A stretch of 64,000 bases of DNA from a virus. How positions within the stretch are numbered: position 1 is the first letter of the stretch; the number at the start of each line of letters is the position of its first letter. The notes under the pieces are model-generated. The model saw nothing but the letters and a program-made list of their open reading frames with translations. It was not told the DNA's origin and made no database searches. A program made the position numbers and the translations under genes. The DNA lies in the IMG/VR virus record IMGVR_UViG_3300027816_000098, positions 2,561 to 66,560 of that record; one strand, 5' to 3'. Positions 11,505 through 63,403 of this stretch are shown here, one piece after another.

Positions 11505-13568
11505 TTAGGCGTTAGTTGTGCTTGTTACAGCACTACTGCTATCATTAAAAACATTTGTTGCTGCTGAGCCATAGTGGTTTCCAAAAGCCCTCATGCCGCT
11601 ACATGTGCCAGTAATTAAAATTCCATTTAGGGCTATATTAGATCCTTCTTTAAATCCTCTATTGGCAATTATAGAACTATTGGTTACGGAATCATTAAAA
11701 TATATATGATTATGTGTATTAGTTGTAACTTGACTTGGATCTTTGGTTATATTGTTTGCAACCATAATAGCAGAGGAGTTAGTTCTAACATCTATAGAAT
11801 CTTGAGATGTATCTTCTACCCTGTTATTTGCAATAACTCCGTCAACAACAGTAACAAACAATATTCCATCTCCAAGGTTAGACCCTGTTCTTGTTACATT
11901 TTTTATTTGATTTCCAGTTACAATTGCACCGTCTGTATTCCAAAAAGCAATTGCATTAGTTCCATTTGTGTCAAGTATAAGATTGTTAGATACTGTTATA
12001 TTTTGACTTTGTTGAGGTACTGTTTGTGTTGTAGTAGTGTGATTTGCTCCACCATCCAATCCAATAGTAATGCCACCATAACAAGACTGTATTGTATTTG
12101 AATCAATAATTAAATTTTTATAAACTACATAAGTTCTAATTGCATACTCAGTTAAAGAGTCAAAATGATTTTTTGTTATCTTAGTATTGGTATGATAAAA
12201 TCCAGCGGTATAAGAATGACTTCCTACCCCTGTTGGCCAAGCAGTTGTTCCACTAGTACCAGATGGACCAAAATAACAATTTTCAATTACAACATCTTCA
12301 CACGAAGTATTATCATAAGAACCAAAAGCACCAAATACTGCTGAACTTTTAGCAAGATCAATCTGTATTGCCTCAGAGTATCCTCTACTTCCAGTATCAA
12401 CAAAACCAATAAGTCTGCAGTTTGATATTCTTACATTCTTACTTGAGTTAATTTCTATTGCGTGAAAACCTGCTGTATCTTTTACTGTTAAATCTTGAAT
12501 TATAATATTTTGTCCGTGACCAATACTAATACCCATAGCAGGTGTTACTGGATAAGATGGTCCTTTATTATCCCATATTCCACCAATAATTTTAATATTA
12601 CCTTGTCCATTATAGCCACTATATGATGCACCAGCCAAGCCATTAATAATTAAATTTGATGTATGGTTTCTGCTTAATGTTGCTTTTTGAGAAGATAATA
12701 AAGTTGTACCTTCGTATATTTCAAGTCTGCTTCCTAAATTATAAGTTCCAGTTGGAATATATACTATGCCACCACCAGCATCTCTTGCGGCATATAAAGC
12801 ATTTTGAATTTTTGTTGCAGAATCTGCCTCTCCTGAAACAACTCCATAATCTCTCACAACATCATAAAAATTAGTTTGTGCTGATGCACCACTTGGTAGA
12901 TTTGCTGTAAGTAGCACCCTATTATTAGCATCATCATAAGTTGCTGTTAATCTAGTGTGAAAAGCATGATCAAACAATTGTGCTGCCGCATCTTGAATTG
13001 TTTCTGTAGGTACTGCTGCTGATGCAGTTGAGGTAAGCAATACCCTGTTATTTGCATCGTCATAAGATGCAGTTACGTTTGTATGAAAAGCGTGATTAAG
13101 AAGTGGTGCTGCAGCATCTTGTATATCTTCTGTTGTTGGATTTGCTACAGTTGTTAACAATACTCTGTTGTTAGCATCATCATATGAAGCAGTAATGTTT
13201 GTATGAAAAGCGTGATCTAATAATGGTGCAGCAGCGTCTTGGACTTGTTCTGTGCTAACCGACCCAGAGCCACCACCGCCTGTAATCAATACTCCATTTA
13301 CAGTTAACGTGCTTCCAACCACCAAGTTTCCTGATATAGATCCACTGCTAGCGTTAATAGTTCCTAAATTTAAAGTTTTTCCTTGTAAAACTGTTGTTAT
13401 TGGAGCATTGATATATTCACTAGATGCTGCTACGTACCTAAATATATCATCTGCTTGTGGGCTTGCAGAGGTGATGCCACCAACCGCATCAATTGTAAAA
13501 TTGTTATCAAGTAAATTTGTCCACTCACTTGTTTCCGTATTAAATACTTTAGGATATGAACCTGTCAT
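11505..13568 (-). CDS. Tailspike / polysaccharide depolymerase (right-handed beta-helix)
   Basis: VRDYGVVSG..DSATKIQNAL...GGGIVYIPTGTY pectate-lyase-3-like start, followed by parallel beta-helix repeats and EAIQID; repeated N-terminal stalk. Confidence 0.85.
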   Translation of the reverse strand: MTGSYPKVFNTETSEWTNLLDNNFTIDAVGGITSASPQADDIFRYVAASSEYINAPITTVLQGKTLNLGTINASSGSISGNLVVGSTLTVNGVLITGGGGSGSVSTEQVQDAAAPLLDHAFHTNITASYDDANNRVLLTTVANPTTEDIQDAAAPLLNHAFHTNVTASYDDANNRVLLTSTASAAVPTETIQDAAAQLFDHAFHTRLTATYDDANNRVLLTANLPSGASAQTNFYDVVRDYGVVSGEADSATKIQNALYAARDAGGGIVYIPTGTYNLGSRLEIYEGTTLLSSQKATLSRNHTSNLIINGLAGASYSGYNGQGNIKIIGGIWDNKGPSYPVTPAMGISIGHGQNIIIQDLTVKDTAGFHAIEINSSKNVRISNCRLIGFVDTGSRGYSEAIQIDLAKSSAVFGAFGSYDNTSCEDVVIENCYFGPSGTSGTTAWPTGVGSHSYTAGFYHTNTKITKNHFDSLTEYAIRTYVVYKNLIIDSNTIQSCYGGITIGLDGGANHTTTTQTVPQQSQNITVSNNLILDTNGTNAIAFWNTDGAIVTGNQIKNVTRTGSNLGDGILFVTVVDGVIANNRVEDTSQDSIDVRTNSSAIMVANNITKDPSQVTTNTHNHIYFNDSVTNSSIIANRGFKEGSNIALNGILITGTCSGMRAFGNHYGSAATNVFNDSSSAVTSTTNA
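12905..13255 (-). repeat. Three tandem ~40-aa repeats (TExIQDAAAxLxxHAFHTxxTAxYDDANNRVLLT)
   Basis: Visible in both protein and DNA at 120-nt spacing. Confidence 0.9.
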
Positions 13569-14035
13569 AAATCTATCAGTCCTGTATCAAAGACCCCAAA
13601 AAGTTGTTTTAAAGCAATTGAAGTTATTGGTGGACTTGGATGTGTTGGAAGTTGTCCATAAACTCTAATTTTTGTAGTTGTATTACTATATACAGTAACA
13701 GAGTTAGTGTTAACTCTAGAATAAAATTTTAAACCTTGCCCATCATTTTCATCTACAAATATATCATAAACATTTAGATTTGCTGACCCAGATACGGCAG
13801 CAATAGTTTCAATATATGGTGTCCACTTTACTTCATATGGCCCACCTTGTGTTAAAACAGTTAAATCGGCAGCAACCAATCCGTTACTTTTTTGCCCAGT
13901 GCTTTCTACCCTAAAAAGTTTAGACCACTCCGAGATACTACCTTTGTCCTCTGTTGCTATTCTAAATCTAACAACATGGGTTCCATCTCTATTTGGAGGA
14001 GGTAGTTGTGATAATGGAATTATTACTTTAGCCAC
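13565..14035 (-). CDS. Minor tail/baseplate protein
   Basis: Beta-rich 156-aa ORF coupled within the tail operon. Confidence 0.6.
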   Translation of the reverse strand: MAKVIIPLSQLPPPNRDGTHVVRFRIATEDKGSISEWSKLFRVESTGQKSNGLVAADLTVLTQGGPYEVKWTPYIETIAAVSGSANLNVYDIFVDENDGQGLKFYSRVNTNSVTVYSNTTTKIRVYGQLPTHPSPPITSIALKQLFGVFDTGLIDL

Positions 14036-15189
14036 TAAGATGTCACTCCTATGCCAAATCTATATTCAATATAGTTGTTAGTATTTTCTTCTTTTAAGAT
14101 TGGTTGTGCATCATCTGTTTTAATAACATCATATCCTACTAATGCATATAAAGGATTAATAGTAGAGACATTGTCTATTCTTAATCCATCATAAACGACT
14201 AGATAGTTATCTGTTGGTACACCCCCAACTAAAACAGATGTGTACATTCTAATTCCATTAATATTTGAAAATGTAAAGTTAGAATCTCTTTCGAAGTCTG
14301 ATAAAGACTTTGTTACAATAATATATCTATTTGGATTAGAACTTATTTGAAAATCTGCTGCAGATAGTATTATGCTTAATGTTGCTTTTGGAGATGTTCC
14401 TGGAGTTGTTGTTCCGTTTGTAAACTCTAAAAGAATTCTAACTGAGTCTGGTGCTGTATTTACTGATGCAGTTCTACTCAATAAACCTAATGCAAGTTTT
14501 AGTTGATCTGTTGTAATGTTTTGACTAAAATCAAAATTAATTTCATTATTTTCAACATATGCAGCACTACTTGTTGCTACAAGTTTGCTAGAGTCTAAAG
14601 GGTTTAAAGTTAAATATGAACTACTTCCACTAACCATAAGAGCACGATTTAATAATCTTGGCTGCTCATATCTTGCTGATCTCAATGATGTATCAAATAT
14701 GCTTGAGTCAGAGTTAATAAACTGTGCTTTTGTAGTTGTGGTAATATCGTTAGTTACAACACTGCCACTTGCAAAGTTTACAACTCCATCTGGTTCAAAA
14801 AGCACTGCAGATGCTGATCCATTATTTACATATGACCATGTTTCTGCTGGCGTATAGGTAATCAAAAGTCTACTATCATACTTTCCCGCTGTAACGTTTG
14901 TTGCCGCTGGATATACCCCAACTTCTGAAATTAAATATCTTTGAGTTGTAGGCATTTGTGCTTTAAATACTATTTTTTCTGTTCCATCATCTTCTCTTAC
15001 AAAACCTTTTGCAATGATTGGCTCTCTAAAAACTTCAAAATCTAATACTTGTGCAGATGGTGAGACAGTGGCCTCTACCCCAGTTAATTCTGGCTTTCTA
15101 CCAGTTCCAGCAGCAATATATGTAGCAAATGCTGGTGCCTGATCTAAAAGATACTTTGCAATAATTTCTTTTCCATTTGTTGTAATCAA
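14035..15189 (-). CDS. Minor tail/baseplate protein
   Basis: MITTNGKEIIAKYL...IAAGTG...ISEVGVY, resembling tail-fibre-anchor/baseplate N-termini. Confidence 0.7.
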   Translation of the reverse strand: MITTNGKEIIAKYLLDQAPAFATYIAAGTGRKPELTGVEATVSPSAQVLDFEVFREPIIAKGFVREDDGTEKIVFKAQMPTTQRYLISEVGVYPAATNVTAGKYDSRLLITYTPAETWSYVNNGSASAVLFEPDGVVNFASGSVVTNDITTTTKAQFINSDSSIFDTSLRSARYEQPRLLNRALMVSGSSSYLTLNPLDSSKLVATSSAAYVENNEINFDFSQNITTDQLKLALGLLSRTASVNTAPDSVRILLEFTNGTTTPGTSPKATLSIILSAADFQISSNPNRYIIVTKSLSDFERDSNFTFSNINGIRMYTSVLVGGVPTDNYLVVYDGLRIDNVSTINPLYALVGYDVIKTDDAQPILKEENTNNYIEYRFGIGVTS

Positions 15190-15190
15190 A

Positions 15191-15919
15191 TTAGTTCACC
15201 TCGTATATTGTACCATTAGAATCGATTTGGACCTCTACTACTTCTTTATCCCTCATATTAACTACCTCAATGATTAGATTTCCACTTTCATCTATATATA
15301 CATAGTCTGTTAGTCCAAGGGCTTCTAAATATTCATCACTAGGTATTTTATTATTTAAATTAATAGAGTTACTTATAAAAGTAGAATCAGATGTTTGTAC
15401 AGATATTAATTCATCAGGGTTAAACTTTCTTCTTATATCAGATAGATTGGATATAATATTATATGATGGATTATTTCCCTCTACCGTGTCGTGTCTGACA
15501 AACTTTACTAACTCATTAGCACCTATGTTTTCAAACAATAAGTTTTCTATGGTCTTAGCATCTAATTCTTCTGTTGCTAGATTAACCACGTCTCTTTCTG
15601 GAACCATTACTGGTGGTGGCGTAAATGAAAAATCTCCTGTATCTGGTGGTGGTAACGCTGGACCTGGATCTGGTGGCAATACCGTATCGCCTCCCCCTTG
15701 CTTCCCCCTTTTCTTTCTTTTTTTATCTACTCCAATTGGAGCCCTAAATGGCTTTGTGTATGAATAAGCAAATAAATTATTTGTAGATGTTCCAGGCTTT
15801 CTAGTTCCCTGTATTCCAGTATTGGCTTTTTTAACAGCCTCTGCTAACTTCTGTACTTTTGGACTACTGGATGGAGAGGCTTTTCCTCCTCCACCTTTAC
15901 CTGCTGCTGGTTTTGCCAT
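15191..15919 (-). CDS. Minor tail protein with basic, Pro-rich disordered N-terminus
   Basis: Position in tail operon; KKRKKRGK and PPPDPGP low-complexity segment. Confidence 0.6.
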   Translation of the reverse strand: MAKPAAGKGGGGKASPSSSPKVQKLAEAVKKANTGIQGTRKPGTSTNNLFAYSYTKPFRAPIGVDKKRKKRGKQGGGDTVLPPDPGPALPPPDTGDFSFTPPPVMVPERDVVNLATEELDAKTIENLLFENIGANELVKFVRHDTVEGNNPSYNIISNLSDIRRKFNPDELISVQTSDSTFISNSINLNNKIPSDEYLEALGLTDYVYIDESGNLIIEVVNMRDKEVVEVQIDSNGTIYEVN

Positions 15920-18900
15920 TATGCTTCCACCATCCTTAATCTATTTCTAATTCCACTTGCTGATCTAGAATAAAATATTTCTGTTACAACAAACTTTTTA
16001 TCTATATCTACAAAAATAGTTCCTTCTTGATTATTTTGTTCTGGGAATCTATAGTTTACTGTCAATAAATCTCCAAGTTGTATATGAGGTGTCCCAAATG
16101 TTTCAATATACATATTTTTTCTAGGTCTTATAGTTTTTTTAACCATCCACTCCATTATATCGCGTGCTTGATCATAACTTTGAATATATGGAGACTCTAA
16201 TGTAAATGACCTATCTCCGTATTTAGATCTGCTTGACTTAACGTTTTGATATGTTTTTTCTGATACTTGTGGAGAAACTATAACATTGTTAACTACCACT
16301 GGATCGCTAAAGTTTGACAAGTCTTTAAAGTAGTCGTCTACGTTTAATACACCAGATGTATTTTGAGTAAAGGTTACTCCTATAATTCTTAAATAACTTC
16401 CAGATGTTTCATCTAGAACAATAGCCTTATCTGTATTATTGAACACCAAAAATTCAGCACCGTATGATCCAGCCCTAAATCCAGAAGCGGTATATGTTCT
16501 TTCGCTATTAAATGTAGGTGCTAAGAATGCTAAAAATGCTGGGTATGCTTTGTCATATTTAACATTAAAGTATGCACATTCTCTAAATATAGTTCCAAAC
16601 TCATCAAAATATATAGAATACTTTGGACCACTATTAGGGTTAATTCCAGATAGATATGTTGACTGAACTATTCCAGACATAGCATATGTTCTAAGAGCGT
16701 CAGATGATAGTATTTCCTTGCTAGAAAATGGTTTACTTGTACTATTGACTACAGATACACTACTTTCTTTACTTTGCAAATTTTTAAGTGCATAAACATT
16801 ATCAAACATACACTTTGAAGGACCTCTAGTAAATAATGCTATGTTGTTATATAAAGGCAAAGGAGAAGTGTCATCTACAGTAGATATTAATATATTGTTT
16901 ATATATAGATAGAATCTTCTAGTATCTCCAATGTTTTCATATTCTACAGATAGATCATATACAGTTGGATTTGTTTGATTTGCTACCCTGTCGTTTCCAA
17001 CAAACCTACCTTCATCTACTAATATCTTTGTTAGCCCACCCCATAATTTATACGGAACTGCTACTGTTGTGTTGTTTACTGTACCAGGCTGTACTTTATA
17101 AAATATAACATTATGAACTACGCTTGTAGTTGCACCAGTTGTAGCGTCTGCTGTTGTATATCTTTCTAAGTTATCTCCAGTTAGAGATACAATTTCAAAA
17201 TAGTATCCACATCCAGTTGATGAGTTTAGTAATACAGCAATTCCTCCAGAGCCACCTTCAATCTTAGGAGTATCGTTTGCTGTCAAAGGCTCTACGGTAT
17301 AATAGTCTACAGCATTTTGTGGTGTTAAAATTTTATCTCCATAGATAGACTTTCCAATAATTCTCATTCTAGTTCCAAAATGTTTAAAGTCATTATTCAT
17401 TTCTTTATATACATATGTAACAAAATCTCTTTTTTCAATATTTGTTGGTAAAGGTGTTGGCCCAGTAAATACTAAGGCTGAAGACTGAATAGTTCCAGCA
17501 GTTGTAGTTTTATAATCTTTTAATACATCATCAGATGGTATTGATTGACGCATAAAATTAGCAATAATACTAGTTCTTGTTGAAGATAGTGCGGTTGTAT
17601 TATCCATACCAACGCCTGCTAAGTTTAAACTTTGTTTTGGTGGAAAAGATATAGAGTTTGTAGGGGTTGTTGTAAATATATAATTTGATGACATTTTAAT
17701 GCCACGAACATTTGCGTTGTCAGTCCAGTAAGAAGATAATCCAGCAGTATGCTCTGTTATAGTTGTACCAAATTGTGCTCTTCCGTGTGACTTTACTTCT
17801 CCATTTTTATATGTTACTCCTGGATCTAGTCCAACAACACTTGCTGATGCTAAGTTAACATAGTATGGTTCTGAGTAAATTCTAACATTTCCAGTAGGAT
17901 ACATTTTTCCATTGAATGGCAACTCTGCAAAATATTTTTGATATTCTTGATTACTTGTTATCCAAAATGTTCCTTGTCCTGGTATTGTGTATTCAACTGC
18001 ATCATATCTAATAATTTCACCGTTAGCATATAGATAGCCTTGAAATCTAGGTAGCCAATATACATTTTCTCCTAGGTCTATAATATTATTCACAACAAGA
18101 TTGCTTTCTACGCTTGGGGGCTGGTCGTTAAGAGTTGTATTTAAAGCAACGGCTCCTAAAGAAAATCCAGTACTTTTTGATTGTTCGTTAATAGTTTTGG
18201 TTGCAATGTCATTTCCAACTTCCCAAAGCAAAACTGGCTTGTAGATATATGTTCTATCCTCATCTATTTTAGTTGCTTGAGAAAGTGATGCTGGTGATCT
18301 TTGTATGTATCTAGTAACATAATTAATTTTTCCATTATTTAAAATTTTTGTATCTACACCCTCTATTTGAATTATGTTTGGCAAAACTGATCCAGAAGAG
18401 GCTGCAGTTCTTTGTCCATAAAGTGTGTAGTCTACTGCTCTGTCTGCAGTGTCTGGAAGTAGGTAGTCTTTTGTCATAATCACAAAATCATTGTTTTCGT
18501 CAAAGAACATTGCTGTTTGTGTTGATATAGATAATCTTTCTAATACCTCTGCAACGGATGCATCTGTTTCTACAAAAAAGAAAGGTATTACTGGATCATT
18601 CTTTGTTGTAATGTTTCTAAATATATAATTGCTAAAGCCAATGCTGTCTAAAAGAACTGCTACTGCCTTTGTTAGTGTAGTATTATTTAATAGTATTGAT
18701 GGTGCTGTCGCTGTTTCAAATCTAAAATAACTATCTCTAAGTGGAACATTAACATCAAAGAGTCCTCCAACAACTACGGGAAATTCTTCTGAATATAATG
18801 TTTTTATAGGTATAAATTTATCAAACCCATTAACATCTAATATTGCTTCATAGAAGTCAAACTTTACATTTGGTTTTAGTAATCCTTTAATTAAACTGCT

Positions 18901-20289
18901 GTCATTGTTTTCACTAAATGCTTCATCGTAATTCATTAAGGTAATTTGTCCGTTTGATGCTAATAGTCCACCAACTGGTAATCCAGTATTTGATTTTGCT
19001 AAAGATCTATTTGTTTCAAATGTTGATACATAGTTTGATATATCTGCTTTTAGTCTTGGAGATAATTCTATTAAGTCAAAGGTAGTTTCTGGTCCATACA
19101 TAGTTTCTACTACGACTCTTAAACCTTTAATATATTTTACTTCTCTGTATGTTCTTATACCGTCTATCTCAAAGTACTCTGGGTCAACAAGTGTTCTAAC
19201 CATTCCTATACGTTTTGTATCATCGTCTTCTAATAAAGAAAATCCATATTCTGGAACAGATATGTCCCACGCTGCTCCATCCCAAATATAAAGTTCACCT
19301 GGGTCTGTTGTACTTGATCCAACTAGGTATGCCTCTCCAGCAAGTAGGCCATTTACCAAAAGAGCACTAGAACTTAAATTGTCAACTAAGTTAAAATTAG
19401 TTTTATAATCATCTGGTGCTATTAATCCATAATATAATTCAACATATCCATCATATTTAACTATATTAGTACCGTCTCTTCTTGTGCTATCTTCATCAAA
19501 GTCTATAGCAGTATTCCAGTTATTTGCCTCGTCTAGGTACTGAATAGACCACCTTTTTGGAATACTTGATTTGTTAATGTCTCCTAGTGGATCTTCTACG
19601 CTAACATCATCTAGTCTATTTCTTATAGTGCCTTTAGATGTTTCGGCAAGATTTGTTTGCATCTTTAAAACTATTCTATTAATTGCAAAATTATTTTCAT
19701 ATATAACAAATGGAACGGCATCTTCTATTTCATATCCTATAGCATTTGCTTGAGTCTTATTTGATATACCTCTTTCTTTACTAATAAAATTAGCACTAGC
19801 ATTTGCTTTATATAATTCTCTTCTATATGAATTCCAGTATTTAAATTTATCATATCTAGATGCTAAATAATATCTTGGTCTTCTAGCAGATGTAATATTA
19901 TCTATGTATTTATTATCAAAGAATAATGCTTTATTTATACCCGATCTAGGTCTAAATGGTTGAAAGCATTCTTTTAATGAAAAGTATAAACTTCTATCTA
20001 CTTCTGTATTTGTAAACAATAATGATGCATCGTTGTCATCTACTGCATACTCTGATATCACTTTTGACTCTAATGCGTCTAAGTAAAAATTACCTTCATC
20101 ATTTACATCATATGAAGATACTAAGGCATTATATATTGGTGAAGCAGAATCATTTGGTCTATATCTATAGTTTCCATAATTTTCTATAGACTGTAAATCA
20201 TTTAGATTCCATTCTGCTGTTACTAAAGACTCAACCTTTAAGGTATTTACAGTTTGAAGATGGTCTAATAACTCTTCATCGTTAAACAT
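15919..20289 (-). CDS. Large minor tail (tail tip/hub) protein
   Basis: 1456 aa, two genes after the tape measure; C-terminal GTPHIQLGDLL tail-hub-like motif. Confidence 0.8.
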   Translation of the reverse strand: MFNDEELLDHLQTVNTLKVESLVTAEWNLNDLQSIENYGNYRYRPNDSASPIYNALVSSYDVNDEGNFYLDALESKVISEYAVDDNDASLLFTNTEVDRSLYFSLKECFQPFRPRSGINKALFFDNKYIDNITSARRPRYYLASRYDKFKYWNSYRRELYKANASANFISKERGISNKTQANAIGYEIEDAVPFVIYENNFAINRIVLKMQTNLAETSKGTIRNRLDDVSVEDPLGDINKSSIPKRWSIQYLDEANNWNTAIDFDEDSTRRDGTNIVKYDGYVELYYGLIAPDDYKTNFNLVDNLSSSALLVNGLLAGEAYLVGSSTTDPGELYIWDGAAWDISVPEYGFSLLEDDDTKRIGMVRTLVDPEYFEIDGIRTYREVKYIKGLRVVVETMYGPETTFDLIELSPRLKADISNYVSTFETNRSLAKSNTGLPVGGLLASNGQITLMNYDEAFSENNDSSLIKGLLKPNVKFDFYEAILDVNGFDKFIPIKTLYSEEFPVVVGGLFDVNVPLRDSYFRFETATAPSILLNNTTLTKAVAVLLDSIGFSNYIFRNITTKNDPVIPFFFVETDASVAEVLERLSISTQTAMFFDENNDFVIMTKDYLLPDTADRAVDYTLYGQRTAASSGSVLPNIIQIEGVDTKILNNGKINYVTRYIQRSPASLSQATKIDEDRTYIYKPVLLWEVGNDIATKTINEQSKSTGFSLGAVALNTTLNDQPPSVESNLVVNNIIDLGENVYWLPRFQGYLYANGEIIRYDAVEYTIPGQGTFWITSNQEYQKYFAELPFNGKMYPTGNVRIYSEPYYVNLASASVVGLDPGVTYKNGEVKSHGRAQFGTTITEHTAGLSSYWTDNANVRGIKMSSNYIFTTTPTNSISFPPKQSLNLAGVGMDNTTALSSTRTSIIANFMRQSIPSDDVLKDYKTTTAGTIQSSALVFTGPTPLPTNIEKRDFVTYVYKEMNNDFKHFGTRMRIIGKSIYGDKILTPQNAVDYYTVEPLTANDTPKIEGGSGGIAVLLNSSTGCGYYFEIVSLTGDNLERYTTADATTGATTSVVHNVIFYKVQPGTVNNTTVAVPYKLWGGLTKILVDEGRFVGNDRVANQTNPTVYDLSVEYENIGDTRRFYLYINNILISTVDDTSPLPLYNNIALFTRGPSKCMFDNVYALKNLQSKESSVSVVNSTSKPFSSKEILSSDALRTYAMSGIVQSTYLSGINPNSGPKYSIYFDEFGTIFRECAYFNVKYDKAYPAFLAFLAPTFNSERTYTASGFRAGSYGAEFLVFNNTDKAIVLDETSGSYLRIIGVTFTQNTSGVLNVDDYFKDLSNFSDPVVVNNVIVSPQVSEKTYQNVKSSRSKYGDRSFTLESPYIQSYDQARDIMEWMVKKTIRPRKNMYIETFGTPHIQLGDLLTVNYRFPEQNNQEGTIFVDIDKKFVVTEIFYSRSASGIRNRLRMVEA

Positions 20290-20873
20290 TATACTTCCTC
20301 AACTGATACCGATATGTTCCAAAAATCATGTGTAGTAAATCCTCTTTTAACTACTGAGTAATCAAAGTCAGAGAAATATACTTCTAGAACTTCATTATAT
20401 TGTTGTAAGTGTGCATATGGTGCTGTATCAAATTTATCATATCTATCATAAGCCAAAAGCATAAAGAAAGATCCTTGATGTGCCTCGTACCACTTTACTA
20501 GATCAACTCCACCTGCACCGCCATCTGCTGTATATTCTTCTGCAGAATATGTTTGTATTCCACTAGAGTCAAACCCTGGATCTCCACTAAATGCTCTAGA
20601 AGGAAGCATTTCCCAAGACCAAGAAACATTTGTTTTGTCTGCAATATGATAAGAACGCATTGTTCCAGATATCATTCTTTGTTTATTTTCTATTCTTTGT
20701 TTAGTAAAATTAATCTCACTTCTATTATGGTCTGATAGTATTAAAAAGTCTTCACCTTCGGTATTGCCATCTGGTATAAATAATCCTCCACTAAGGGTAT
20801 ATGAGTCTGCCCATGCAATTGCTTGTGGTCTGGTATATGCAAATCTATTTTGAATATATGTTGAATTAACCAT
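20289..20873 (-). CDS. Distal-tail-like minor tail protein
   Basis: Immediately downstream of the tape measure; ends ISVSVEEV. Confidence 0.7.
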   Translation of the reverse strand: MVNSTYIQNRFAYTRPQAIAWADSYTLSGGLFIPDGNTEGEDFLILSDHNRSEINFTKQRIENKQRMISGTMRSYHIADKTNVSWSWEMLPSRAFSGDPGFDSSGIQTYSAEEYTADGGAGGVDLVKWYEAHQGSFFMLLAYDRYDKFDTAPYAHLQQYNEVLEVYFSDFDYSVVKRGFTTHDFWNISVSVEEV

Positions 20874-27659: not shown

Positions 27660-27694
27660 TTATCCTCCTTAAGGACATAGTAAAATTATAGCAC

Positions 27695-54150: not shown

Positions 54151-55083
54151 TTATCCTCCCAAGACTATATCGATTGCTTTGAACGGATATATCCTTGTTC
54201 TTGTTGTAGTAGTTGGTCCTGATACTATTGTAGCATCACATGTCGCTCCAGTTGGAACAGGTCCTGCAAACGCTATATACCCTTGATCATCTATCCTAAA
54301 TCCTCTTCTTGGAATCATTGATTGCCAGACGGTTTCAGGAAAGTCTACTGATTGTATTATACCATTAATTGAAATTGAAAGTTTGAAAGGATTTGTTATT
54401 GCTACACTAGCACTTTGATACATTGGTAAAAATCTAGTTTCTATACCGTTGAATTGTGGAGATAAATCATCTAGTGGTATAATTTCAATTTCTGATTGGG
54501 TTACAGAGTCAAATGCTCCAGCAGTTAATTGGATCCTATTACTTGCATCATTATAAGTTGCTACTAAGTTAGTATGAAAGCCATGATTGAATAAGCCAGA
54601 TACAGCATCTTGAATATATTCTACACCCGTTGAATCCTGTGGAACATATGTTGAAGCCCCGTTGGCTATAGTCAAATATACAGAAGAGGCTGCATTGATT
54701 TGATAGGTTGTATTTGCAGAGGCTGAACTAAAGGCTGAATTAAAGGCTGTTGCAGATGCACTGGTGATGCTATTATAAATATTTGAAAAGAATGCAGGAT
54801 CGTCATTGATAGCGGCTGCTAGTTCATTTAAAGTATCAAGGGTGCCTGGAGAAGCATCTATTAAACTATTTATCTGGGTATCAATATAAGAAACAAGACT
54901 TGATGATGCTGATGTTACGAGGGGTATAGCAAAATAATCTAAACTATTCCATGCTGTAGTTCCATTACCAATTTTAAGTTTATAAGTATCTGTTTCTAGA
55001 CCTAGTTCACCGCTAGATAAAACAGGATTTTCAAATGTCCAAGATGCTGCTAATCCTCTACGAACTTGGATTTTAGTTGCCAT
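54151..55083 (-). CDS. Fibre protein with Mtd-N-like N-terminal domain
   Basis: IQVRRG.AASW...NPVL..GELGLETDT.KLKIGNG.TAW; SPGTLDTLNELAAAINDD motif. Confidence 0.8.
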   Translation of the reverse strand: MATKIQVRRGLAASWTFENPVLSSGELGLETDTYKLKIGNGTTAWNSLDYFAIPLVTSASSSLVSYIDTQINSLIDASPGTLDTLNELAAAINDDPAFFSNIYNSITSASATAFNSAFSSASANTTYQINAASSVYLTIANGASTYVPQDSTGVEYIQDAVSGLFNHGFHTNLVATYNDASNRIQLTAGAFDSVTQSEIEIIPLDDLSPQFNGIETRFLPMYQSASVAITNPFKLSISINGIIQSVDFPETVWQSMIPRRGFRIDDQGYIAFAGPVPTGATCDATIVSGPTTTTRTRIYPFKAIDIVLGG

Positions 55084-56747: not shown

Positions 56748-57242
56748 TTATGCCGCCTTTATTCCATATAAATGAAAAGTAGATCCTGAAGTTATATCCC
56801 CACTTGACCAAAATATAGTTATTGATGTAATTGCTGAATTAGATGACCATTTTTGAACTAACATTTCAACTACGTCCGAAGCATTACTTTGGCGTACCAA
56901 GTTTGTTTTATGTTTATTAGTTGATGAATAATCTAGAAAGTTAACTGTAGAAAGAGTTGTTGTTCCAATATTAGTATTACCAGCATAATCAAAAAAGAAA
57001 TAACCAAGGCTAGTTTGTCTATATGAAGCGGTATCGGTGCCATTACCTCGAGTGCCAACCATTGAATAATTACTTCCAGTGTCGGAATTTAATCGCATAT
57101 ATCCTGTTACGCCATTTGTAGAAGGTGATGCAGTTATTTTTAAAACTAAATCAGTATAGGTTTGAGGTATAGAATTAAAAATAACAGAAGATGTTGATGC
57201 TCCTAAAGTTATAGATGATATTGGCTCATATGTTGCTGGCAT
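56748..57242 (-). CDS. Beta-sandwich virion protein (YG-terminal family)
   Basis: IPQTYTDL...AITSI...LYGIKAA. Confidence 0.75.
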   Translation of the reverse strand: MPATYEPISSITLGASTSSVIFNSIPQTYTDLVLKITASPSTNGVTGYMRLNSDTGSNYSMVGTRGNGTDTASYRQTSLGYFFFDYAGNTNIGTTTLSTVNFLDYSSTNKHKTNLVRQSNASDVVEMLVQKWSSNSAITSITIFWSSGDITSGSTFHLYGIKAA

Positions 57243-57838
57243 TATATTACTCCATATAAAGCAAAGTTAGAATGCTGAATCCATGAAGCAGAATTTGCTG
57301 GTATAAATCTAATTGATGTAATAGCGGCAGTGGAACGCCAGTTGCCTGAAAATAAAAATAAAAATCCAGATCCATTTTGATCATGCCCAGTTAATGATTT
57401 TATTGTTTTAAACTTATTTGTATTTGTATAATCTAAAATATCTATTATTCCCACACCAAAAACATTTGCTGTAGAGCCTGCCCCAGGTGTTCTACCAGCC
57501 AACATATTTGTTTGATTAATATTTGCAAATGTTCCAGTTGCAGATAAGTTATTTGAATAAAGTCCATGTTGTGAGTAATTTGATCCTGTATCAGAATTAA
57601 AAATCATTTCTGCGTTATTATCGGTATTGCTAGCAAGATTACACCTACCAGTAAATCTAAGTTGTAAATGAGTATATGTTTGAGGAATATTACTAAATAA
57701 AATTTCACTTGCACCACTTACACCTACAGTGTTAGTAGCAATACTTTCAAAATTGCCAGGTGAAGAAGATTGATCCCATGCCCTGGCTCTTTTTGAACCA
57801 GTAGTCATTGAAGATGTTTTGAAACTTGTAATTGCCAT
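57242..57838 (-). CDS. Beta-sandwich virion protein (YG-terminal family)
   Basis: IPQTYTHLQLR...AITSI...ALYGVI. Confidence 0.75.
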   Translation of the reverse strand: MAITSFKTSSMTTGSKRARAWDQSSSPGNFESIATNTVGVSGASEILFSNIPQTYTHLQLRFTGRCNLASNTDNNAEMIFNSDTGSNYSQHGLYSNNLSATGTFANINQTNMLAGRTPGAGSTANVFGVGIIDILDYTNTNKFKTIKSLTGHDQNGSGFLFLFSGNWRSTAAITSIRFIPANSASWIQHSNFALYGVI

Positions 57839-58170
57839 TATACAATTTCAGCCCCGAATACACTAAATGTTAAATTAGCGGATGAAGCATAAACTGTTAC
57901 AACATCAGAAGCGTCAATTGTTATACCCAATGAAAGTGCTGTACTGTCGTTTGCACCAACAGTAGTATCGTATGCAATATAGTGACTGTTTGCTAACGAT
58001 GCACCATTTGGTCTTAGAGCAATACGATATGTTGCACCACTTGTGTCACGGTTAGTAATGATTATAGTTGAAACTACAACCTGTGTACTAGCCGAAACAG
58101 TATAGATATCAGTAGCGGTTGTAGCACTTGGTGCTGATTGTGCTAAGATCTTATAATTTTTTGTTGCCAT
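57838..58170 (-). CDS. ~110-aa virion adaptor protein (paralog 3)
   Basis: YKILAQSAPSAT...VSTIIITN...ANDS..LSLGIT...VFGAEIV. Confidence 0.75.
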   Translation of the reverse strand: MATKNYKILAQSAPSATTATDIYTVSASTQVVVSTIIITNRDTSGATYRIALRPNGASLANSHYIAYDTTVGANDSTALSLGITIDASDVVTVYASSANLTFSVFGAEIV

Positions 58171-58173
58171 TAT

Positions 58174-58266
58174 TTACCTCCCTGCTAAAAATACATCTTG
58201 TATGCTATCTACGTCTAAATCTTGGACGGTAGTAATTAAATCTGCTAATTCTCTTGCTTTACTCAT
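58174..58266 (-). CDS. 30-aa micro-protein (not in ORF track)
   Basis: MSKARELADLITTVQDLDVDSIQDVFLAGR; TATAAT ends 6 nt before the ATG; shares its N-terminal motif with neighbouring genes. Confidence 0.65.
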   Translation of the reverse strand: MSKARELADLITTVQDLDVDSIQDVFLAGR

Positions 58267-58302
58267 ATATTAATTATATCTCCTTTAATTTTATATACCC
58301 TT

Positions 58303-58917
58303 TTATTTTTTATAACCATAAATTGAAATAGACCCACTCATTGTATTTGCAGCACCGTACATTGTTATTCCATCATAAGATGTTGATAAAGTATGAGTAA
58401 TTCCTGATTCCGATAACCAAAGTTGAGTTGTATCTGCTAAGAGTTTTGCTGTATACCGAGAAAAACCATAAGTTTGAGATGCAGCAAAAGGATTAACAAG
58501 TTCAATTTCAAATAATTCATTACCAGCACTTGCTGTGTAATTTAAATCCCAATTTGTTAACGCTGCTCTAGTTCCATATAGTGTTGTACTAGCACCACGA
58601 ATATTTTGAACACCATAGTTTGATCCAGTTGCGTCACTTCCTCCTGTACGAAGTCTAAAATACGCACCTTCGTTTGCACTCCAGTTTATATTTGTTAAAA
58701 TTCTATATCTATCGTAATTAGCACTAAATATGTTATTTAAAGAAATTGATGAAGCAGTTGCAAAAGTTATTGTACCACTTGTTGATATTGAAGATGTGGC
58801 ACTTCCTCCAACAACTGATATAGAACTTGGAACAATGCTAACTAAGCCTAATTCACTATCTGTAGCCAAGGCGGTACTCGAAGATAAAACCTTTGATATA
58901 TCTCTACTTCTAGCCAT
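58303..58917 (-). CDS. Virion surface protein (MxRxRD tag + YG-terminal domain)
   Basis: MARSRDISK...SIYGYKK; paralog of 62807..63403. Confidence 0.75.
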   Translation of the reverse strand: MARSRDISKVLSSSTALATDSELGLVSIVPSSISVVGGSATSSISTSGTITFATASSISLNNIFSANYDRYRILTNINWSANEGAYFRLRTGGSDATGSNYGVQNIRGASTTLYGTRAALTNWDLNYTASAGNELFEIELVNPFAASQTYGFSRYTAKLLADTTQLWLSESGITHTLSTSYDGITMYGAANTMSGSISIYGYKK

Positions 58918-58935
58918 TATATTTTATATACCCCC

Positions 58936-60189
58936 TTAGTTCCTGTATCCATAAATTCCAACTGTGCCAGTAAAATTACCTGCACTATTACCAAAAGTAA
59001 TTCCTGTTAAAGAAGTAGTTTGATTATATCCACCTACAACTGTAAATAATGATGGAGAAGTACCTGATAAATCTCTACCACTTTGACTTACAATTCTTGT
59101 GTAATCTGTTGCGAAAGGTTTGAATACATCCATAGATATAGCAACTGCTCCAACTGCTTGATATAGTAATTCAAAAGATGATTGACCTGATGCTCTACCA
59201 CCAGTTAAAGTTGTAGAACTTGCTAAAATATTTTGAAACAAATAATTACTTGCAGTAACATTACCACTTCCATTTCGAAATTGAACTGTAATGTTTTGAG
59301 TGCCACTTGTAACGCATTCAAAAATAATTCGATAATTGTTGTAATTTGTATTAAAGACACCATCTATTGAAACACTAGAAGCACTTGTAAAAGAAACTGC
59401 TCCAGTAGAAGAAACGGACCCACTACCACCAGTTACAGCGATAGAAGTTGGAACTAACTGAACTAATCCACCAGCAGCCACAGGAGCGTAAGTAGTAGAG
59501 GCACTACTTTGACTTAAATATGTGCTACTAGCACTAGTTTTAGTTAAAAATTGATCATCAGTTTGTGCAATAGTATAAGTATTAGGAACTCTAAAATTCT
59601 TTAAGGTATGAATTTGAATAATATCATTTGTAACTACCGCCTCATCTAGGGTTACAGCAGAACCACTAGTGGCAACATATTCTTCGGGTGCTAATAAAAT
59701 TCCATTTACATATACTTTTTCTAATCCAGCAGTATAATCTAAAGTAACTGCATTATCATCTAAGCCAGATATAACTGTGCCAGAGGCACTTACAGTTTTA
59801 GTCCATCTTTCAAATGTATTAGCAACTTTATTATCTATTTGTGCTTGTGTATATGTATTACCTACATTTATATTATTATAGGCTATTACTTCTACTATAT
59901 ACCCCGCTGTTAGGGCTGTAAGACCTGTGATTGTGGTTCCTGTAGTTGCTGTGTAGTCTGAGTCTCTTGCTAATAGAACACCATTAAGATATACCTGCTC
60001 ATATCCAGGGGTATAAATTAAAGATTCTCCATTATCATCATTACCAGACAAAGATGTTTCTGATCCTACTGCTGTATATTGCCAGCGGGTAGAATTAACT
60101 AAATTTCCAGCGGTATTTAAAGGTACCCATTCTGTACCATTATAAGCATATAAGGCTTTACCATTTGTTAATATTTGTGCTGATGCCAT
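58936..60189 (-). CDS. Virion surface protein (two YTxG..VYxNG repeats + YG-terminal domain)
   Basis: YTPGYEQVYLNGVLL / YTAGLEKVYVNGILL; ends GIYGYRN. Confidence 0.75.
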   Translation of the reverse strand: MASAQILTNGKALYAYNGTEWVPLNTAGNLVNSTRWQYTAVGSETSLSGNDDNGESLIYTPGYEQVYLNGVLLARDSDYTATTGTTITGLTALTAGYIVEVIAYNNINVGNTYTQAQIDNKVANTFERWTKTVSASGTVISGLDDNAVTLDYTAGLEKVYVNGILLAPEEYVATSGSAVTLDEAVVTNDIIQIHTLKNFRVPNTYTIAQTDDQFLTKTSASSTYLSQSSASTTYAPVAAGGLVQLVPTSIAVTGGSGSVSSTGAVSFTSASSVSIDGVFNTNYNNYRIIFECVTSGTQNITVQFRNGSGNVTASNYLFQNILASSTTLTGGRASGQSSFELLYQAVGAVAISMDVFKPFATDYTRIVSQSGRDLSGTSPSLFTVVGGYNQTTSLTGITFGNSAGNFTGTVGIYGYRN

Positions 60190-60212
60190 ATTTTAATTAT
60201 ACCTTCTCCTTG

Positions 60213-61145
60213 TTATGTTAAATACCTAATTATTACTATTCCGCTACCGCCTGCTGCTCCACCATTCTTTCCTCCACCACCGCCACCACCAGTATTTGTT
60301 TGTCCTGGATTTCCAGCACCACCGTTATTTTGTGTATAGTTACCACCGCCACCAAGTCCACCATTTCCTGTTGTAGGACCTTCTCCAGATCCACCTCCAC
60401 CACCACCTGCGTAATATGTTGGAGTTCCACTTATAGAAACTTGTGTACCATTTCCTCCGTGACCTCCTGAGTTACCAGCAGTTCCTGATGCTCCAGCACC
60501 ACCTCCACCACCACCTCTATAGTTAACACCGTTTCCACCATTATTTCCTTGTCCAGCAGTTCCTGCACCACCATTTGATGTATCTCCACCACCACCTCCA
60601 CCAGATCCACCACCGTTACCTCCTACGTTATAGTAGTTACCTCCATATCCACCACCTAAAGATGTTATAGTAGAAAAAACTGAATTTGATCCATTATTTG
60701 ATCCAGATGCACCTCCAGATCCTACTGTAACAGTATGAGATCCTGCACTTACTGACATTGTAGAATTTCTTAATCCGCCTGCACCACCACCACCACCTCT
60801 ATCTCCAGCACCACCAGCACCTCCACCAGCAACAACTAAATATTCAACATCTAAAGAAACATTTGCTAAGAAAATACCACTTGATAAAAATGTATGAATA
60901 GTATAAGCACCAGATGTAGTTATATCTCCACCAGTTGCTTTTTGTTGAGTAAGTTTAGGAATTCTAAAAGATGATGATCCAAATATTTGCATCACTGGTG
61001 CAGAAGCACTTGAAGTATCAATCCACAATCTTCCATTAGTATTTGATGAACTAGGAGAAGCAGAAGAAATAACTATTCTAGAATCTAAATCAGAAATACT
61101 TGCAGCGGTAGTAAAAATTTTACTCACATCTCTTGCTCTAGTCAT
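60213..61145 (-). CDS. Glycine-rich virion protein with MxRxRD tag
   Basis: MTRARDVSK; IHTF..VEYLVVAGGG...GSGIVIIRY. Confidence 0.8.
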   Translation of the reverse strand: MTRARDVSKIFTTAASISDLDSRIVISSASPSSSNTNGRLWIDTSSASAPVMQIFGSSSFRIPKLTQQKATGGDITTSGAYTIHTFLSSGIFLANVSLDVEYLVVAGGGAGGAGDRGGGGGAGGLRNSTMSVSAGSHTVTVGSGGASGSNNGSNSVFSTITSLGGGYGGNYYNVGGNGGGSGGGGGGDTSNGGAGTAGQGNNGGNGVNYRGGGGGGAGASGTAGNSGGHGGNGTQVSISGTPTYYAGGGGGGSGEGPTTGNGGLGGGGNYTQNNGGAGNPGQTNTGGGGGGGKNGGAAGGSGIVIIRYLT

Positions 61146-61152
61146 ATTATAA

Positions 61153-61332
61153 TTATACCTCCCCAGGAATATATTCTTCTGCTATATTTCCTTCTTCTAC
61201 CCATTTTAAATACTCTTTATAATCCATATTATTTTCATCCGTTGGTATATTAGATTCCGAACCATCTTCATTAAACCTTTTAATAAAAAGACTACCTGAA
61301 ACAATTCCTCTATATGTTTTATACATTGTCAT
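61153..61332 (-). CDS. Small fibre-assembly-like protein
   Basis: IPTDENNMDYKEYLKWVEEGN motif; likely start MTMYK at 61332 (track 61374). Confidence 0.65.
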   Translation of the reverse strand: MTMYKTYRGIVSGSLFIKRFNEDGSESNIPTDENNMDYKEYLKWVEEGNIAEEYIPGEV

Positions 61333-61333
61333 T

Positions 61334-62518
61334 TTATAACTCCGCCGATAACCATAAATAAGATCCAGCACCATTTGTGCGATTAAATGTTGCTCGCCCA
61401 GCAGTTGATGCTGCAGTTATTGCTGCAATATCTATTCCATTTATATTTGAAGCATCAGTGTTTATAGAACTAGAAACTCTTTGAACTTGTCCAACTCCAT
61501 CAAAACTTTTAATAGCGGTTCCACTAGATGCTGTTAAAGTTGGTGCTGATCTCATTGGAATCTTAAAATGTAGAGTTCCAAGACTTTCAGTTGCACTCCA
61601 ATAGTGACCAGAATATAGTGCTTTATTATCGTCTTTCCATACTTGTAAATATCTCATACATTCTAATAAATCTTGTGCGTAAGGTTTATATTCAAAGGGT
61701 GTTGCTGTTGATCCAATTTCTAATTGAATACCAGTAACTTGCCAATAGTTGTTTACTGCTGAAGCAACGTTTATTTGACCAACTGCTTCAGTTCCAGGAG
61801 CATTAGAAGCCCACGTTGAATTTAATGTACCAGACTGATAATTGCTTCCAGCACCCAACCAATGATACAATCTTAATCCAGCCGCTGAAGTATTGGCTAT
61901 AACTCCAGATGTACCTGCACTAAAAGTAAGAGTTTTCTTTTCCCATGTATTAATGGCATTTACTGTATAAGTTCTTGCTATCGATGTACCATATGGAGGG
62001 AATCCAATGCTATTATTTTCATCTAAGAGACTACAAACATAAGTTCCTGTTACGTTTGATTTAACCCAAAAAGAAACAGTTAGTGGTTGTGCTTGAGGGG
62101 TTCCCTTTTTTACTCCTTGAAGATTTTGTCCTTCAATTACTTGATAAAATATTAATGCTGCCGAAGAACCAGGACTTGCTTGTGCTGTTGTACAAAGCAT
62201 TTTTAATGACTTGCTCAACCCAGAACCAGTTGGTCCATCATTTTCAATTGATTGTGTCCATGTACCAAAGTTTTGAGCACCAGCAAAACTTAATGCCCAT
62301 CTGTCTGCTGTTTTATATAAAGATGTAGTTATAGACGAAAGAGAAGTAGCACGTTGTGCAACCTGCATAGCACCATTAATAATTAAATTTCTATTTGGAG
62401 GACCTTGATATATTACAGATGCACTTGCTTGTGGTAAAAAGGTAGAACTAGCAGACGCAAGCGTCAAAAGCGAGGTATTCGCAGTTAAAATCTTACTTAC
62501 ATCTCTAGTTCTACCCAT
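61334..62518 (-). CDS. Virion protein with carbohydrate-binding-like domain and MxRxRD tag
   Basis: MGRTRDVSK; NRNLIINGAMQVAQR...TGIQLEIG..ATPFE...CMRY; ends SAEL. Confidence 0.8.
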   Translation of the reverse strand: MGRTRDVSKILTANTSLLTLASASSTFLPQASASVIYQGPPNRNLIINGAMQVAQRATSLSSITTSLYKTADRWALSFAGAQNFGTWTQSIENDGPTGSGLSKSLKMLCTTAQASPGSSAALIFYQVIEGQNLQGVKKGTPQAQPLTVSFWVKSNVTGTYVCSLLDENNSIGFPPYGTSIARTYTVNAINTWEKKTLTFSAGTSGVIANTSAAGLRLYHWLGAGSNYQSGTLNSTWASNAPGTEAVGQINVASAVNNYWQVTGIQLEIGSTATPFEYKPYAQDLLECMRYLQVWKDDNKALYSGHYWSATESLGTLHFKIPMRSAPTLTASSGTAIKSFDGVGQVQRVSSSINTDASNINGIDIAAITAASTAGRATFNRTNGAGSYLWLSAEL

Positions 62519-62565
62519 GATAATCTCCTTTAATTATACTTTAATTCTATTTATACCGTGGCAAA

Positions 62566-62790
62566 TTAAGACAGAACTGTTGCTAGTTCTTCTTCAGTTA
62601 AGCCAAGTCTTTCTAGAATTGCTGCTTTTGCTACAGCCTTTTCTGCTGCTGCTGCTTCTCTTGCTTCTTGTTCTGCTTGCATTGCTGCACGATCAGCCAA
62701 GAATGCTTCAAGTTCAGCACCTTCTAACACTCTAACAACTGTTTCTCCAGTTGCTGCGTTAGTTTCAGATACTCTGATTTCTTCTGACAT
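62566..62790 (-). CDS. Small coiled-coil fibre-associated protein
   Basis: NAATGE...AKAAILERLGLTEEE motif; GGAGG RBS. Confidence 0.7.
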   Translation of the reverse strand: MSEEIRVSETNAATGETVVRVLEGAELEAFLADRAAMQAEQEAREAAAAEKAVAKAAILERLGLTEEELATVLS

Positions 62791-62806
62791 AATTTACCTC
62801 CTTTTC

Positions 62807-63403
62807 CTAATTTCTATATCCATAAATACGAACTGTTCCAGTAATAGTTCCGCCTGTTGCAAAAATTGTAAACCCATCATAGGCAGTTGAAACAGAATGG
62901 TCAGCACCAATAACATTTGAGACAACCGATTGTTGAATTCCAAAACCTGAAATTGAAGTAGGTGCTGCTTTAGCAATATCATAAAAATTTAAGTTTAATG
63001 TTAAACTATTAGAAGTAAGTAAATTCATAAAATTCCACTCAGTGCCATTTAATGTACCTTGGCGACCTGGACCTGAGCCAGTTCCAGTAGTAACATTCAT
63101 TTCACTATAATTTCCACCTGTAACATCTGTTCCATTAGCACGAACCCTTGCTCTTAAAGCACCAGTAGCAGTTGAAGTAAATTTGTAGATAAGTTGATAG
63201 TTATCATAAGTGGATGTAAAACAACCATTAAGACTTATTGCTGAAGCACTTGTAAAAGATACTGCACCAGTTGAAGATATGGATCCACTACCACTAGTAA
63301 CACTTACAGAAGTCGGGGTAATTAAAGAAAGTCCTAACTCTGAATCCAAAGCAATATTAGTACTACTAGATAGTACATTTGCTATATCTCTTGCTCTACC
63401 CAT
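62807..63403 (-). CDS. Virion surface protein (MxRxRD tag + YG-terminal domain)
   Basis: MGRARDIAN...RIYGYRN. Confidence 0.75.
   Translation of the reverse strand: MGRARDIANVLSSSTNIALDSELGLSLITPTSVSVTSGSGSISSTGAVSFTSASAISLNGCFTSTYDNYQLIYKFTSTATGALRARVRANGTDVTGGNYSEMNVTTGTGSGPGRQGTLNGTEWNFMNLLTSNSLTLNLNFYDIAKAAPTSISGFGIQQSVVSNVIGADHSVSTAYDGFTIFATGGTITGTVRIYGYRN

Follow-up and report, generated by a model that had tools for sequence, protein, structure and literature searches.

A Ser-Ala-Ser motif in exposed-type virion proteins of an environmental phage contig as a candidate O-glycosylation sequon

The locus and its genes

We analysed a 64-kb window (the whole stretch of DNA considered here) out of the 66.56-kb viral contig of IMG/VR record IMGVR_UViG_3300027816_000098 (G000; 61% complete by CheckV estimate), in which the tripeptide Ser-Ala-Ser (SAS) recurs in virion-type proteins encoded around a phage glycosyltransferase (GT) gene. 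The GC content of the window is 32-39%, and essentially all of its genes lie on the minus strand. In the direction of transcription, an array of fibre-like open reading frames (ORFs; 63922 to 44662) is followed by the GT gene (44152-43064), a class II-type ribonucleotide reductase (RNR) gene and the gene of a protein of 1208 amino acids (aa). The portal, protease/scaffold and major capsid protein come next, then adaptor-like genes and tail genes, among them that of a 2038-aa tape measure, the distal tail proteins with a beta-helix tailspike and, last, helicase, primase, Pol III alpha and RecA. This order agrees with that of Samisti12, a phage of the Stanwilliamsviridae (GT, RNR, ..., portal, protease, capsid, ..., tape measure, ..., helicase, primase, Pol III alpha, RecA), and the portal-protease-capsid stretch gives blastn matches of 66-71% to 102 Streptomyces phage records. 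By gene order and by the similarity of its head and replication genes the window resembles a Stanwilliamsviridae-like siphovirus. At least 357 contig stretches of IMG/VR encode a relative of the GT, and at least 591 a relative of the lectin-like 1208-aa protein. Two relatives serve for comparison below, G007 (complete, 101.7 kb) and G006 (94 kb), whose GTs are 63-64% and whose 1208-aa proteins are 34-35% identical to those of the window. The features are collected in Table 1.

Table 1. Features of the window that bear on the SAS motif; counts are observed sites and, where given, the number expected
Feature	Position	Strand	Evidence and SAS sites
Fibre-like ORF array (57242, 57838, 58936, 60213, 61334, 62807)	57242..63403	-	Tail fibre PHROGs; 11 SAS in total
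Fibre with N-terminal Mtd_N domain	54151..55083	-	Pfam, E 2e-14; 4 SAS vs 0.42 expected
Virion structural protein, 1004 aa	51129..54143	-	phrog_5838; 4 SAS
Two Gly_rich_2 proteins	48711..50602	-	1 SAS each
118-aa protein (p48044)	48044..48400	-	phrog_1084; SAS/ASAS floating within a variable loop
Collagen-like tail fibre protein	46761..48044	-	3 SAS (TSASATSAS)
Two small late proteins, 104 and 199 aa	45830..46751	-	1 SAS each
Predicted GT-B fold, GT4-like glycosyltransferase, 362 aa; candidate modifier	43064..44152	-	phrog_7162 'glycosyltransferase', E 2.5e-31
Class II-type RNR	39581..41566	-	The only SAS outside virion-type proteins
1208-aa multi-domain protein, predicted jelly-roll / concanavalin A (ConA)-like lectin type	35923..39549	-	8 SAS vs 0.68 expected; richest carrier
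SAS-free set	20873..35549	-	Tape measure 20873-26989, protease/scaffold 32233-33945, portal 33990-35549, major capsid protein 31219-32208
Head-tail adaptor-like protein	30238..31125	-	phrog_442; 2 SAS vs 0.09 expected
Distal tail proteins	11505..20289	-	5 SAS: minor tail protein 15919-20289 (3), 14035-15189 (1), beta-helix tailspike 11505-13568 (1)

Excess, distribution and periodicity of SAS

For the count of SAS, 59 minus-strand ORFs without overlap, each of 80 aa or more, were taken from 86 listed ORFs; the 27 left out (25 on the plus strand and two nested on the minus strand) hold three SAS, all in plus-strand shadow frames. The set contains 43 sites in 20 of the 59 ORFs. The original prediction, made from the sequence alone, had put the total at 35-40 in about 17 ORFs, and every one of its single counts was right: 8 in 35923-39549, 3 in 46761-48044, 4 each in 51129, 54151 and 58936, 2 each in 61334 and the adaptor-like 30238, 1 in the RNR, and none in the tape measure or the portal.

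Whole-protein shuffles gave expectations of 12.6 +/- 3.2 (z 9.4) and 13.0 +/- 3.8 (z 8.0), and shuffles confined to windows of 20 or 10 residues gave 15.1 (z 6.9) and 16.7 (z 6.6). The excess thus survives control for composition and for local composition, which rules out both composition and local low complexity as its source, even though the carriers are Ser-rich (S 7-16%) and some sites lie within short Ser/Ala-rich runs such as SSSASASV. The conservative, dipeptide-preserving (Markov-1) null raises the expectation to 26.3 (Poisson P 0.0017); this null is inflated by the motif itself, because the SA and AS dipeptides outside SAS sit at expectation (SA 175 vs 136.5 expected and AS 184 vs 138, with 43 of each inside SAS). 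The tripeptides SSA, ASS, AAS, SAA, TAT and SAT are all at most 1.6-fold enriched. By enrichment SAS ranks second among tripeptides, behind GGG (113 vs 36), whose excess is due to four Gly_rich_2 paralogues and a collagen-like stretch in 46761-48044. These paralogues (PF21722), with long Gly runs, lie at 48711-50602, 55407-56747 and 60213-61145, on the minus strand.

The 43 sites show 23 distinct 9-mers and use both the AGY and the TCN families of Ser codons, which rules out a DNA-level repeat, and a single aligned pair among them leaves 42 alignment-independent groups, which rules out paralogy. The SAS excess in the window is therefore real and resides at the protein level, as had been proposed from the variation of the codons. 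A diversity-generating retroelement was also rejected: 54151 carries an Mtd_N domain, but the SAS codons are not AAY-derived, a judgement made by inspection only, with no search for a reverse transcriptase.

The late exposed-type ORFs of the window contain 42 SAS vs 10.4 expected (4.0-fold), and all others (enzymes, tape measure, protease, portal, capsid and one small head-region ORF) contain 1 vs 2.8 (P for an equal ratio, 1.5e-4). The SAS-free set together with 35539-35910 has none where 1.40 are expected, the adaptor-like gene enclosed by it being counted apart. The confinement to exposed-type proteins that the original prediction had described holds equally in the distant relatives. In G006 the late exposed-type ORFs contain 60 vs 11.7 expected and the others 5 vs 7.5 (P 1.9e-11); the corresponding figures in G007 are 31 vs 10.7 and 6 vs 7.6 (P 5.4e-5). 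SAS is the second most enriched tripeptide in G006 and the third in G007.

The richest carrier, the 1208-aa protein, has no Pfam or PHROG match. Its atlas neighbours carry Laminin_G_3, and its Foldseek matches are lectin-like jelly-roll and carbohydrate-binding module (CBM) domains, suggesting jelly-roll, ConA-like lectin or CBM-type domains by a resemblance at the level of the fold only. An AlphaFold2 model of residues 1-640 (predicted local distance difference test, pLDDT, 78) places the start of six of seven SAS sites in coil beside beta-strands. The surface-loop location that had been proposed for the motif is borne out to this extent; the placement does not discriminate, because 47 of the 75 serines of the model lie in coil as well. 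Homologues of two other carriers in distant phages lack the motif: that of p48044 in Streptomyces phage Sham, located downstream of the capsid gene with one ORF between, has no SAS, and that of 51129-54143 in S-PM2 has 0 vs 0.77 expected. Over its full length the product of 51129-54143 shares 45-47% identity with structural proteins of T4-like cyanomyoviruses (S-PM2, S-RSM4 and Syn1); its position beside head, tail and replication modules of Streptomyces-siphovirus type looks like module exchange across morphotypes.

Underlying SAS is an i,i+2 periodicity specific to serine, the residue between the serines being small or aliphatic. With a dot standing for any residue, S.S occurs 240 times vs 164 expected, S.S.S 40 vs 15.9 and S.S.S.S, the longest type of alternating run in the window, 9 vs 1.6; S[AVLI]S[AVLI]S occurs 10 times vs 1.2. 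Adjacent serines (SS, 182 vs 165.3, 1.10-fold) and serines three apart (S..S, 158 vs 165.3, 0.96-fold) stay near expectation, as do T.T.T (16 vs 13.6) and TAT (13 vs 12.3). Alternating stretches such as SASVSLSASALAS result. The residue between the serines is enriched for Ala (3.3-fold), Pro (2.3-fold; SPS 13 vs 5.7), Ile (2.1-fold) and Gly (1.9-fold; SGS 30 vs 16); no enrichment is seen there for the usual loop residues Asn and Asp (SNS 12 vs 11.2, SDS 8 vs 8.6). Hydrophobic residues peak at positions -5/-4 and +5/+6 from the first Ser (25, 22, 22 and 23 of 43, background 32%), and 12 of the 43 sites fall within the first 60 residues of their proteins, which make up 13% of all residues (P 0.008).

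The same observation extends to the whole clade. Across 72 GT-centred loci SAS occurs 498 times vs 199 expected, with three loci below expectation and one equal to it. By family, in totals that count homologous sequences and not independent events, SAS occurs 219 times vs 40.4 expected in the 1208-aa proteins, 68 vs 6.1 in the p48044 family (54 homologues), 58 vs 18.3 in the p46152 (199-aa) family, 41 vs 14.0 in the p46761 family and 14 vs 2.2 in that of the 104-aa protein from the 45830..46751 region. The corresponding totals are 0 vs 13.5 for protease/scaffold, 7 vs 20.0 for the RNR and 5 vs 7.0 for the portal. Between relatives, SAS is retained at a somewhat higher rate than other triplets (0.66 vs 0.43 at 60-75% identity, 0.33 vs 0.24 below 60%), and at less than 60% identity 63 SAS are seen in the relative only. 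In the p48044 family SASASV, TSASAT and SASSSS appear at shifting places of an otherwise variable loop; in the 1208-aa family SAS is concentrated in variable segments (51-91, 201-228, about 497, 566-608), with next to none in the conserved lectin core. These alignments show a motif maintained by turnover in variable loops.

None of five control phages has an SAS excess. The cyanomyovirus S-PM2 has 6 SAS vs 5.6 expected (S.S 64 vs 85.4), the pelagiphage Mosig (32% GC) 3 vs 2.5 (S.S 32 vs 30.2, T.T 89 vs 61.2), Samisti12 9 vs 5.0, five of the nine being in the tape measure, Streptomyces phage Zuko 4 vs 3.7 and Arthrobacter phage Atuin 13 vs 9.3 (ASA 26 vs 14.6). S-PM2, Mosig and Samisti12 are not among the tblastn matches of the window GT. 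The cultured relative Samisti12 carries three annotated glycosyltransferases together with a heptose-phosphate nucleotidyltransferase-like gene (L102:15566-17266, 19060-20028); its syntenic GT, just upstream of the RNR, is not BLAST-similar to that of the window (E 0.42).

Glycosyltransferase and the O-glycosylation reading

The product of 43064-44152 is indeed a predicted GT-B/GT4-like glycosyltransferase, the assignment of the original prediction being upheld by the phrog_7162 match, a GT-B model and GT4 structural neighbours. The AlphaFold2 model (pLDDT 92.2; predicted template modelling score, pTM, 0.91) has as its top four Foldseek matches BshA (3mbo), MshA, PimA and GlgM, with probability 1.00, template modelling (TM) scores of 0.48-0.68 and just 13-17% sequence identity; BshA matches with E 1.6e-13 and TM 0.68. 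The Pfam scores stay below the gathering thresholds (Glyco_trans_1_4, 19.3 bits with a cut-off of 27; Glyco_trans_1_2, 18.7 with a cut-off of 25), some homologues carry precomputed PF13692 or PF13524, and no PDB sequence matches at E < 0.09. GT4-like enzymes have EX7E as their catalytic or donor-binding motif. In the window GT, E281 and the block K278-G279...G286-P288 are invariant in 25 sequences. The ORFs on either side (44152-44544 and 42538-43056) have no Pfam match, and NCBIfam gave only weak, unrelated matches.

The GT has 842 environmental homologues at E <= 1e-5, and its gene is strictly conserved next to that of the richest SAS carrier. Of 80 loci found via the 1208-aa protein, 33 extend upstream by 6 kb or more; the GT gene is present in all 33, with GT, RNR and 1208-aa gene invariably in this order, and no GT-less relative is found among these 33; the contigs of G001 and G002 end before the GT position. 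Relatives also encode further sugar genes, in a part of the genome that lies outside the contig of the window. In G007 these are an epimerase/dehydratase, a GT2, a fusion of HAD and nucleotidyltransferase domains and an FkbM methyltransferase, adjoining an FtsZ homologue; in G001, from the window's own subclade, FtsZ accompanies a weak GT2-like match, a HAD+NTP_transf gene and a methyltransferase. The FtsZ/tubulin homologue is full-length (Tubulin E 6e-46, plus FtsZ_C; L108:8429-9364 in G007, L115:9488-10417 in G001) and sits directly beside the GT2-like, HAD/nucleotidyltransferase and methyltransferase genes in an order kept in two subclades. A gene of the IMP dehydrogenase / GMP reductase family (L108:1256-2320 in G007, E 8e-98) adjoins the epimerase/dehydratase.

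These findings can be read as a virion O-glycosylation system, to which we give a probability of roughly 40%: SAS would be the sequon of the phage's own machinery, a plausible and specific proposal that is still unproven. In this scheme, the serines of SAS and of the alternating Ser-small-Ser runs would be the acceptors, and proteins of the fibre, lectin-like, decoration and distal-tail types would receive their glycans in the cytoplasm, ahead of assembly or in the course of it. The transferase would be the GT-B/GT4-like enzyme of 43064-44152, probably together with three products of relatives' genes from beyond the window: the GT2-like enzyme, the HAD/nucleotidyltransferase fusion and the methyltransferase. 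We infer, then, an enzyme that acts on protein, Ser within SAS as its acceptor and a glycan-coated virion. A sequon agrees with the serine specificity, the periodicity, the restriction to exposed-type proteins, the turnover in loops and the tight linkage to a conserved GT4-like gene. The wider picture, in which a large and widespread aquatic siphovirus clade has its own cytoplasmic O-glycosylation pathway (GT4-like, GT2-like, sugar-phosphate nucleotidyltransferase and methyltransferase) and coats its fibres, lectin-like receptor-binding proteins and decoration proteins through an evolvable, dispersed SAS sequon, we regard as rather unlikely in its entirety.

Of the virion O-glycosylation claimed by the original prediction, then, the enrichment, the confinement to exposed-type proteins and the GT4-like fold stand, and a number of results tell against the rest. 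The closest solved structures to the GT (BshA, MshA, PimA and GlgM) act on small molecules or lipids and not on proteins. No GtfA, the transferase of the serine-rich-repeat adhesins discussed below, is among the roughly 40 Foldseek matches listed for the GT, and DUF1975 was not found in it, Pfam at E <= 0.01 giving only Glyco_trans_1_4 and Glyco_trans_1_2. Zuko and Atuin carry GT homologues of about 26% identity, yet show no SAS excess. SAS is missing from the major capsid protein (31219-32208), the likely tail tube (27746-28429) has only SGS, and the candidate sites are scattered across fibres and lectin-like proteins, whereas mycobacteriophage glycans sit at the C-termini of capsid and tail-tube subunits according to PMC12619734. 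At orthologous sites Thr often replaces Ser (at site 75, TAS 16 and SAS 8, n=48). In Ser-rich ORFs of GT-bearing relatives that have no homologue in the window SAS is only 1.5-fold enriched (59 vs 39.2) and TAT occurs 72 times vs 35.4 expected. The clade comparison amounts to one phylogenetic event, and part of the signal is a tandem decapeptide shaft repeat, ASASTTYLTQ, of which the window ORFs 58936 and 61334 have two copies.

The last point leads to the strongest alternative, which we consider a real possibility: SAS may be an unmodified structural motif, formed by Ser-small-Ser loops between beta-strands and by the decapeptide shaft repeat SAS-x-x-Y-L-x-Q-A, while the sugar genes serve the host envelope, a small molecule or DNA. 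The hydrophobic peaks flanking SAS are as expected of an inter-strand loop, the modelled sites start in coil flanked by strands, SGS and SPS are enriched too, and the GT's structural neighbours are not protein glycosyltransferases. The enrichment also tracks particular families, with little of it in the unrelated Ser-rich ORFs just mentioned. The decapeptide repeat is a structural element, and in two fibres of G006 it holds 12 of 13 and 14 of 14 SAS. These fibres are encoded by adjacent genes (G006:C1:89520-91920; L113/L114) and carry 12 and 14 near-perfect tandem copies of A-S-A-S-T-T-Y-L-T-Q, following an Mtd_N-like or short N-terminal domain. A purely structural role, however, leaves unexplained the bias for Ser over Thr, where fibres of control phages have T.T periodicity in its place (T.T is in excess in Mosig, and S.S falls short of expectation in S-PM2), and the recurrence of the motif at shifting loop positions in non-homologous proteins. 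The lack of Asn/Asp enrichment between the serines and the absence of the signal from all five control phages also argue against it. As to DNA, a ThyA-type hydroxymethylase was found in none of three genomes (G000, G006 and G007, the last complete), and the classical route to glycosylated DNA is therefore removed.

It is improbable, although less so than an artefact, that the serines of SAS are modified or recognised by another agent (a GT2-like enzyme encoded outside the window, a host enzyme, acetylation or phosphorylation) or form a binding or assembly signal. The GT2-family enzymes and methyltransferases of relatives lie beyond this contig's part of the genome, G000 is incomplete by estimate, and the first 60 residues, in which SAS is over-represented, are the usual attachment zone of fibres; but nothing specific points to any such agent, and the GT4-like gene alone is strictly linked to the richest carrier. 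An artefactual origin of the excess, whether from Ser/Ala composition, local low complexity, a DNA repeat or duplicated domains, is essentially refuted by the shuffles (z 6.6 even with 10-residue windows), the 42 independent groups, the modest enrichment of related tripeptides and the dipeptides at expectation outside SAS.

Some further features stand apart from these questions. The first 45 or so residues of the major capsid protein are rich in Gly, Ser, Ala and Pro (…SAATGSIVSGGIGGVSTPSANLGPAGTASPADGGG…) without SAS, and may form a cleaved or flexible arm. The sole convincing plus-strand gene of the window (42032-42541, 169 aa), in the space that separates the RNR from the ORF adjoining the GT, encodes a domain like the C-terminal one of aggregation-promoting factors (NF052397, E 9.5e-19); its product may be a cell-wall-active protein, a hint of a Gram-positive-type host. 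Far from the head genes, G007 (L108:2685-4001) and G006 (G006:C1:22057-23370) have a 438-aa ORF with a Hva1_TUDOR domain; in its best BLAST segment the G007 ORF is 73.6% identical to the protease/scaffold protein of the window (32233-33945), and the ORF may represent a duplicate of a scaffold-like segment.

If SAS is a sequon, phage genomes would allow virion glycosylation to be read off directly, and it would reach beyond the capsid and tail-tube C-termini of a few mycobacteriophages to the receptor-binding fibres of an abundant environmental clade, with relevance to host recognition, to protection against proteases and grazers and to the engineering of glyco-decorated phages. If SAS is structural, it would still be an unusually clean lineage-specific signature (serine-specific, i,i+2, in exposed proteins only) that could flag virion surface proteins in unannotated contigs of the clade.

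Comparison with known systems

The solved GT4 retaining glycosyltransferases BshA, MshA, PimA and GlgM, although the best structural matches of the window GT, use malate, inositol phosphate, phosphatidylinositol and sugar phosphates as acceptors and are therefore uninformative on the acceptor of this enzyme. Bacteroidetes have a general, periplasmic O-glycosylation system with the sequon D-(S/T)-(A/I/L/V/M/T). Asp precedes SAS at only one of the 43 sites of the window (ndSAS, in 15919-20289), and this sequon was rejected as an account of the motif. The decapeptide-type shaft repeats of Mtd_N-type phage fibres have a counterpart in the window, where 54151 has Mtd_N and where 58936 and 61334 carry the two-copy repeat SAS-x-x-[YF]-L-x-Q-[AS]-SAS; this repeat accounts for only about 4-7 of the 43 SAS, the rest being in unrelated proteins and loops.

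Virion glycosylation in mycobacteriophages (Che8, Corndog and Myrna) was reportedly described by Freeman et al. in 2023. It shares with the window phage-encoded glycosyltransferases and actinophage-type siphoviruses, the window's modules resembling those of Streptomyces Stanwilliamsviridae. At the sequence level the trait of C-terminal glycans on capsid and tail tube is not found in the window: these ends have no SAS, and neither the capsid protein nor the likely tail tube has a Ser/Thr-rich C-terminal tail. In the titles and abstracts of the literature searched we found no sequence-defined glycosylation motif on phage fibres.

Bacterial glycoproteins with serine-rich repeats (SRR; PsrP, GspB, Fap1 and the SRRPs) resemble the window in having acceptors of SAS and alternating serines. 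Their glycosyltransferase GtfA is a GT4 enzyme of GT-B fold. In PMC2920850 the PsrP repeats are given as SAS[A/E/V]SAS[T/I], and PMC6973325 and PMC7661464 describe a cytoplasmic GtfA/GtfB pair that adds GlcNAc to the serine-rich repeats before display. No GtfB partner and no accessory Sec genes are seen in the window. The adhesins have hundreds of tandem repeats, whereas the motifs of the window are single or short and lie in folded phage proteins; a long tandem Ser-x acceptor does not occur there, and even the 12-14 decapeptide repeats of G006 do not make an SRR domain. The serine-rich-repeat adhesins nevertheless offer the closest working analogy. If the O-glycosylation reading is true, the SAS proteins and their GT would be a viral counterpart of that system, with the first sequence-defined glycosylation sequon in a phage.

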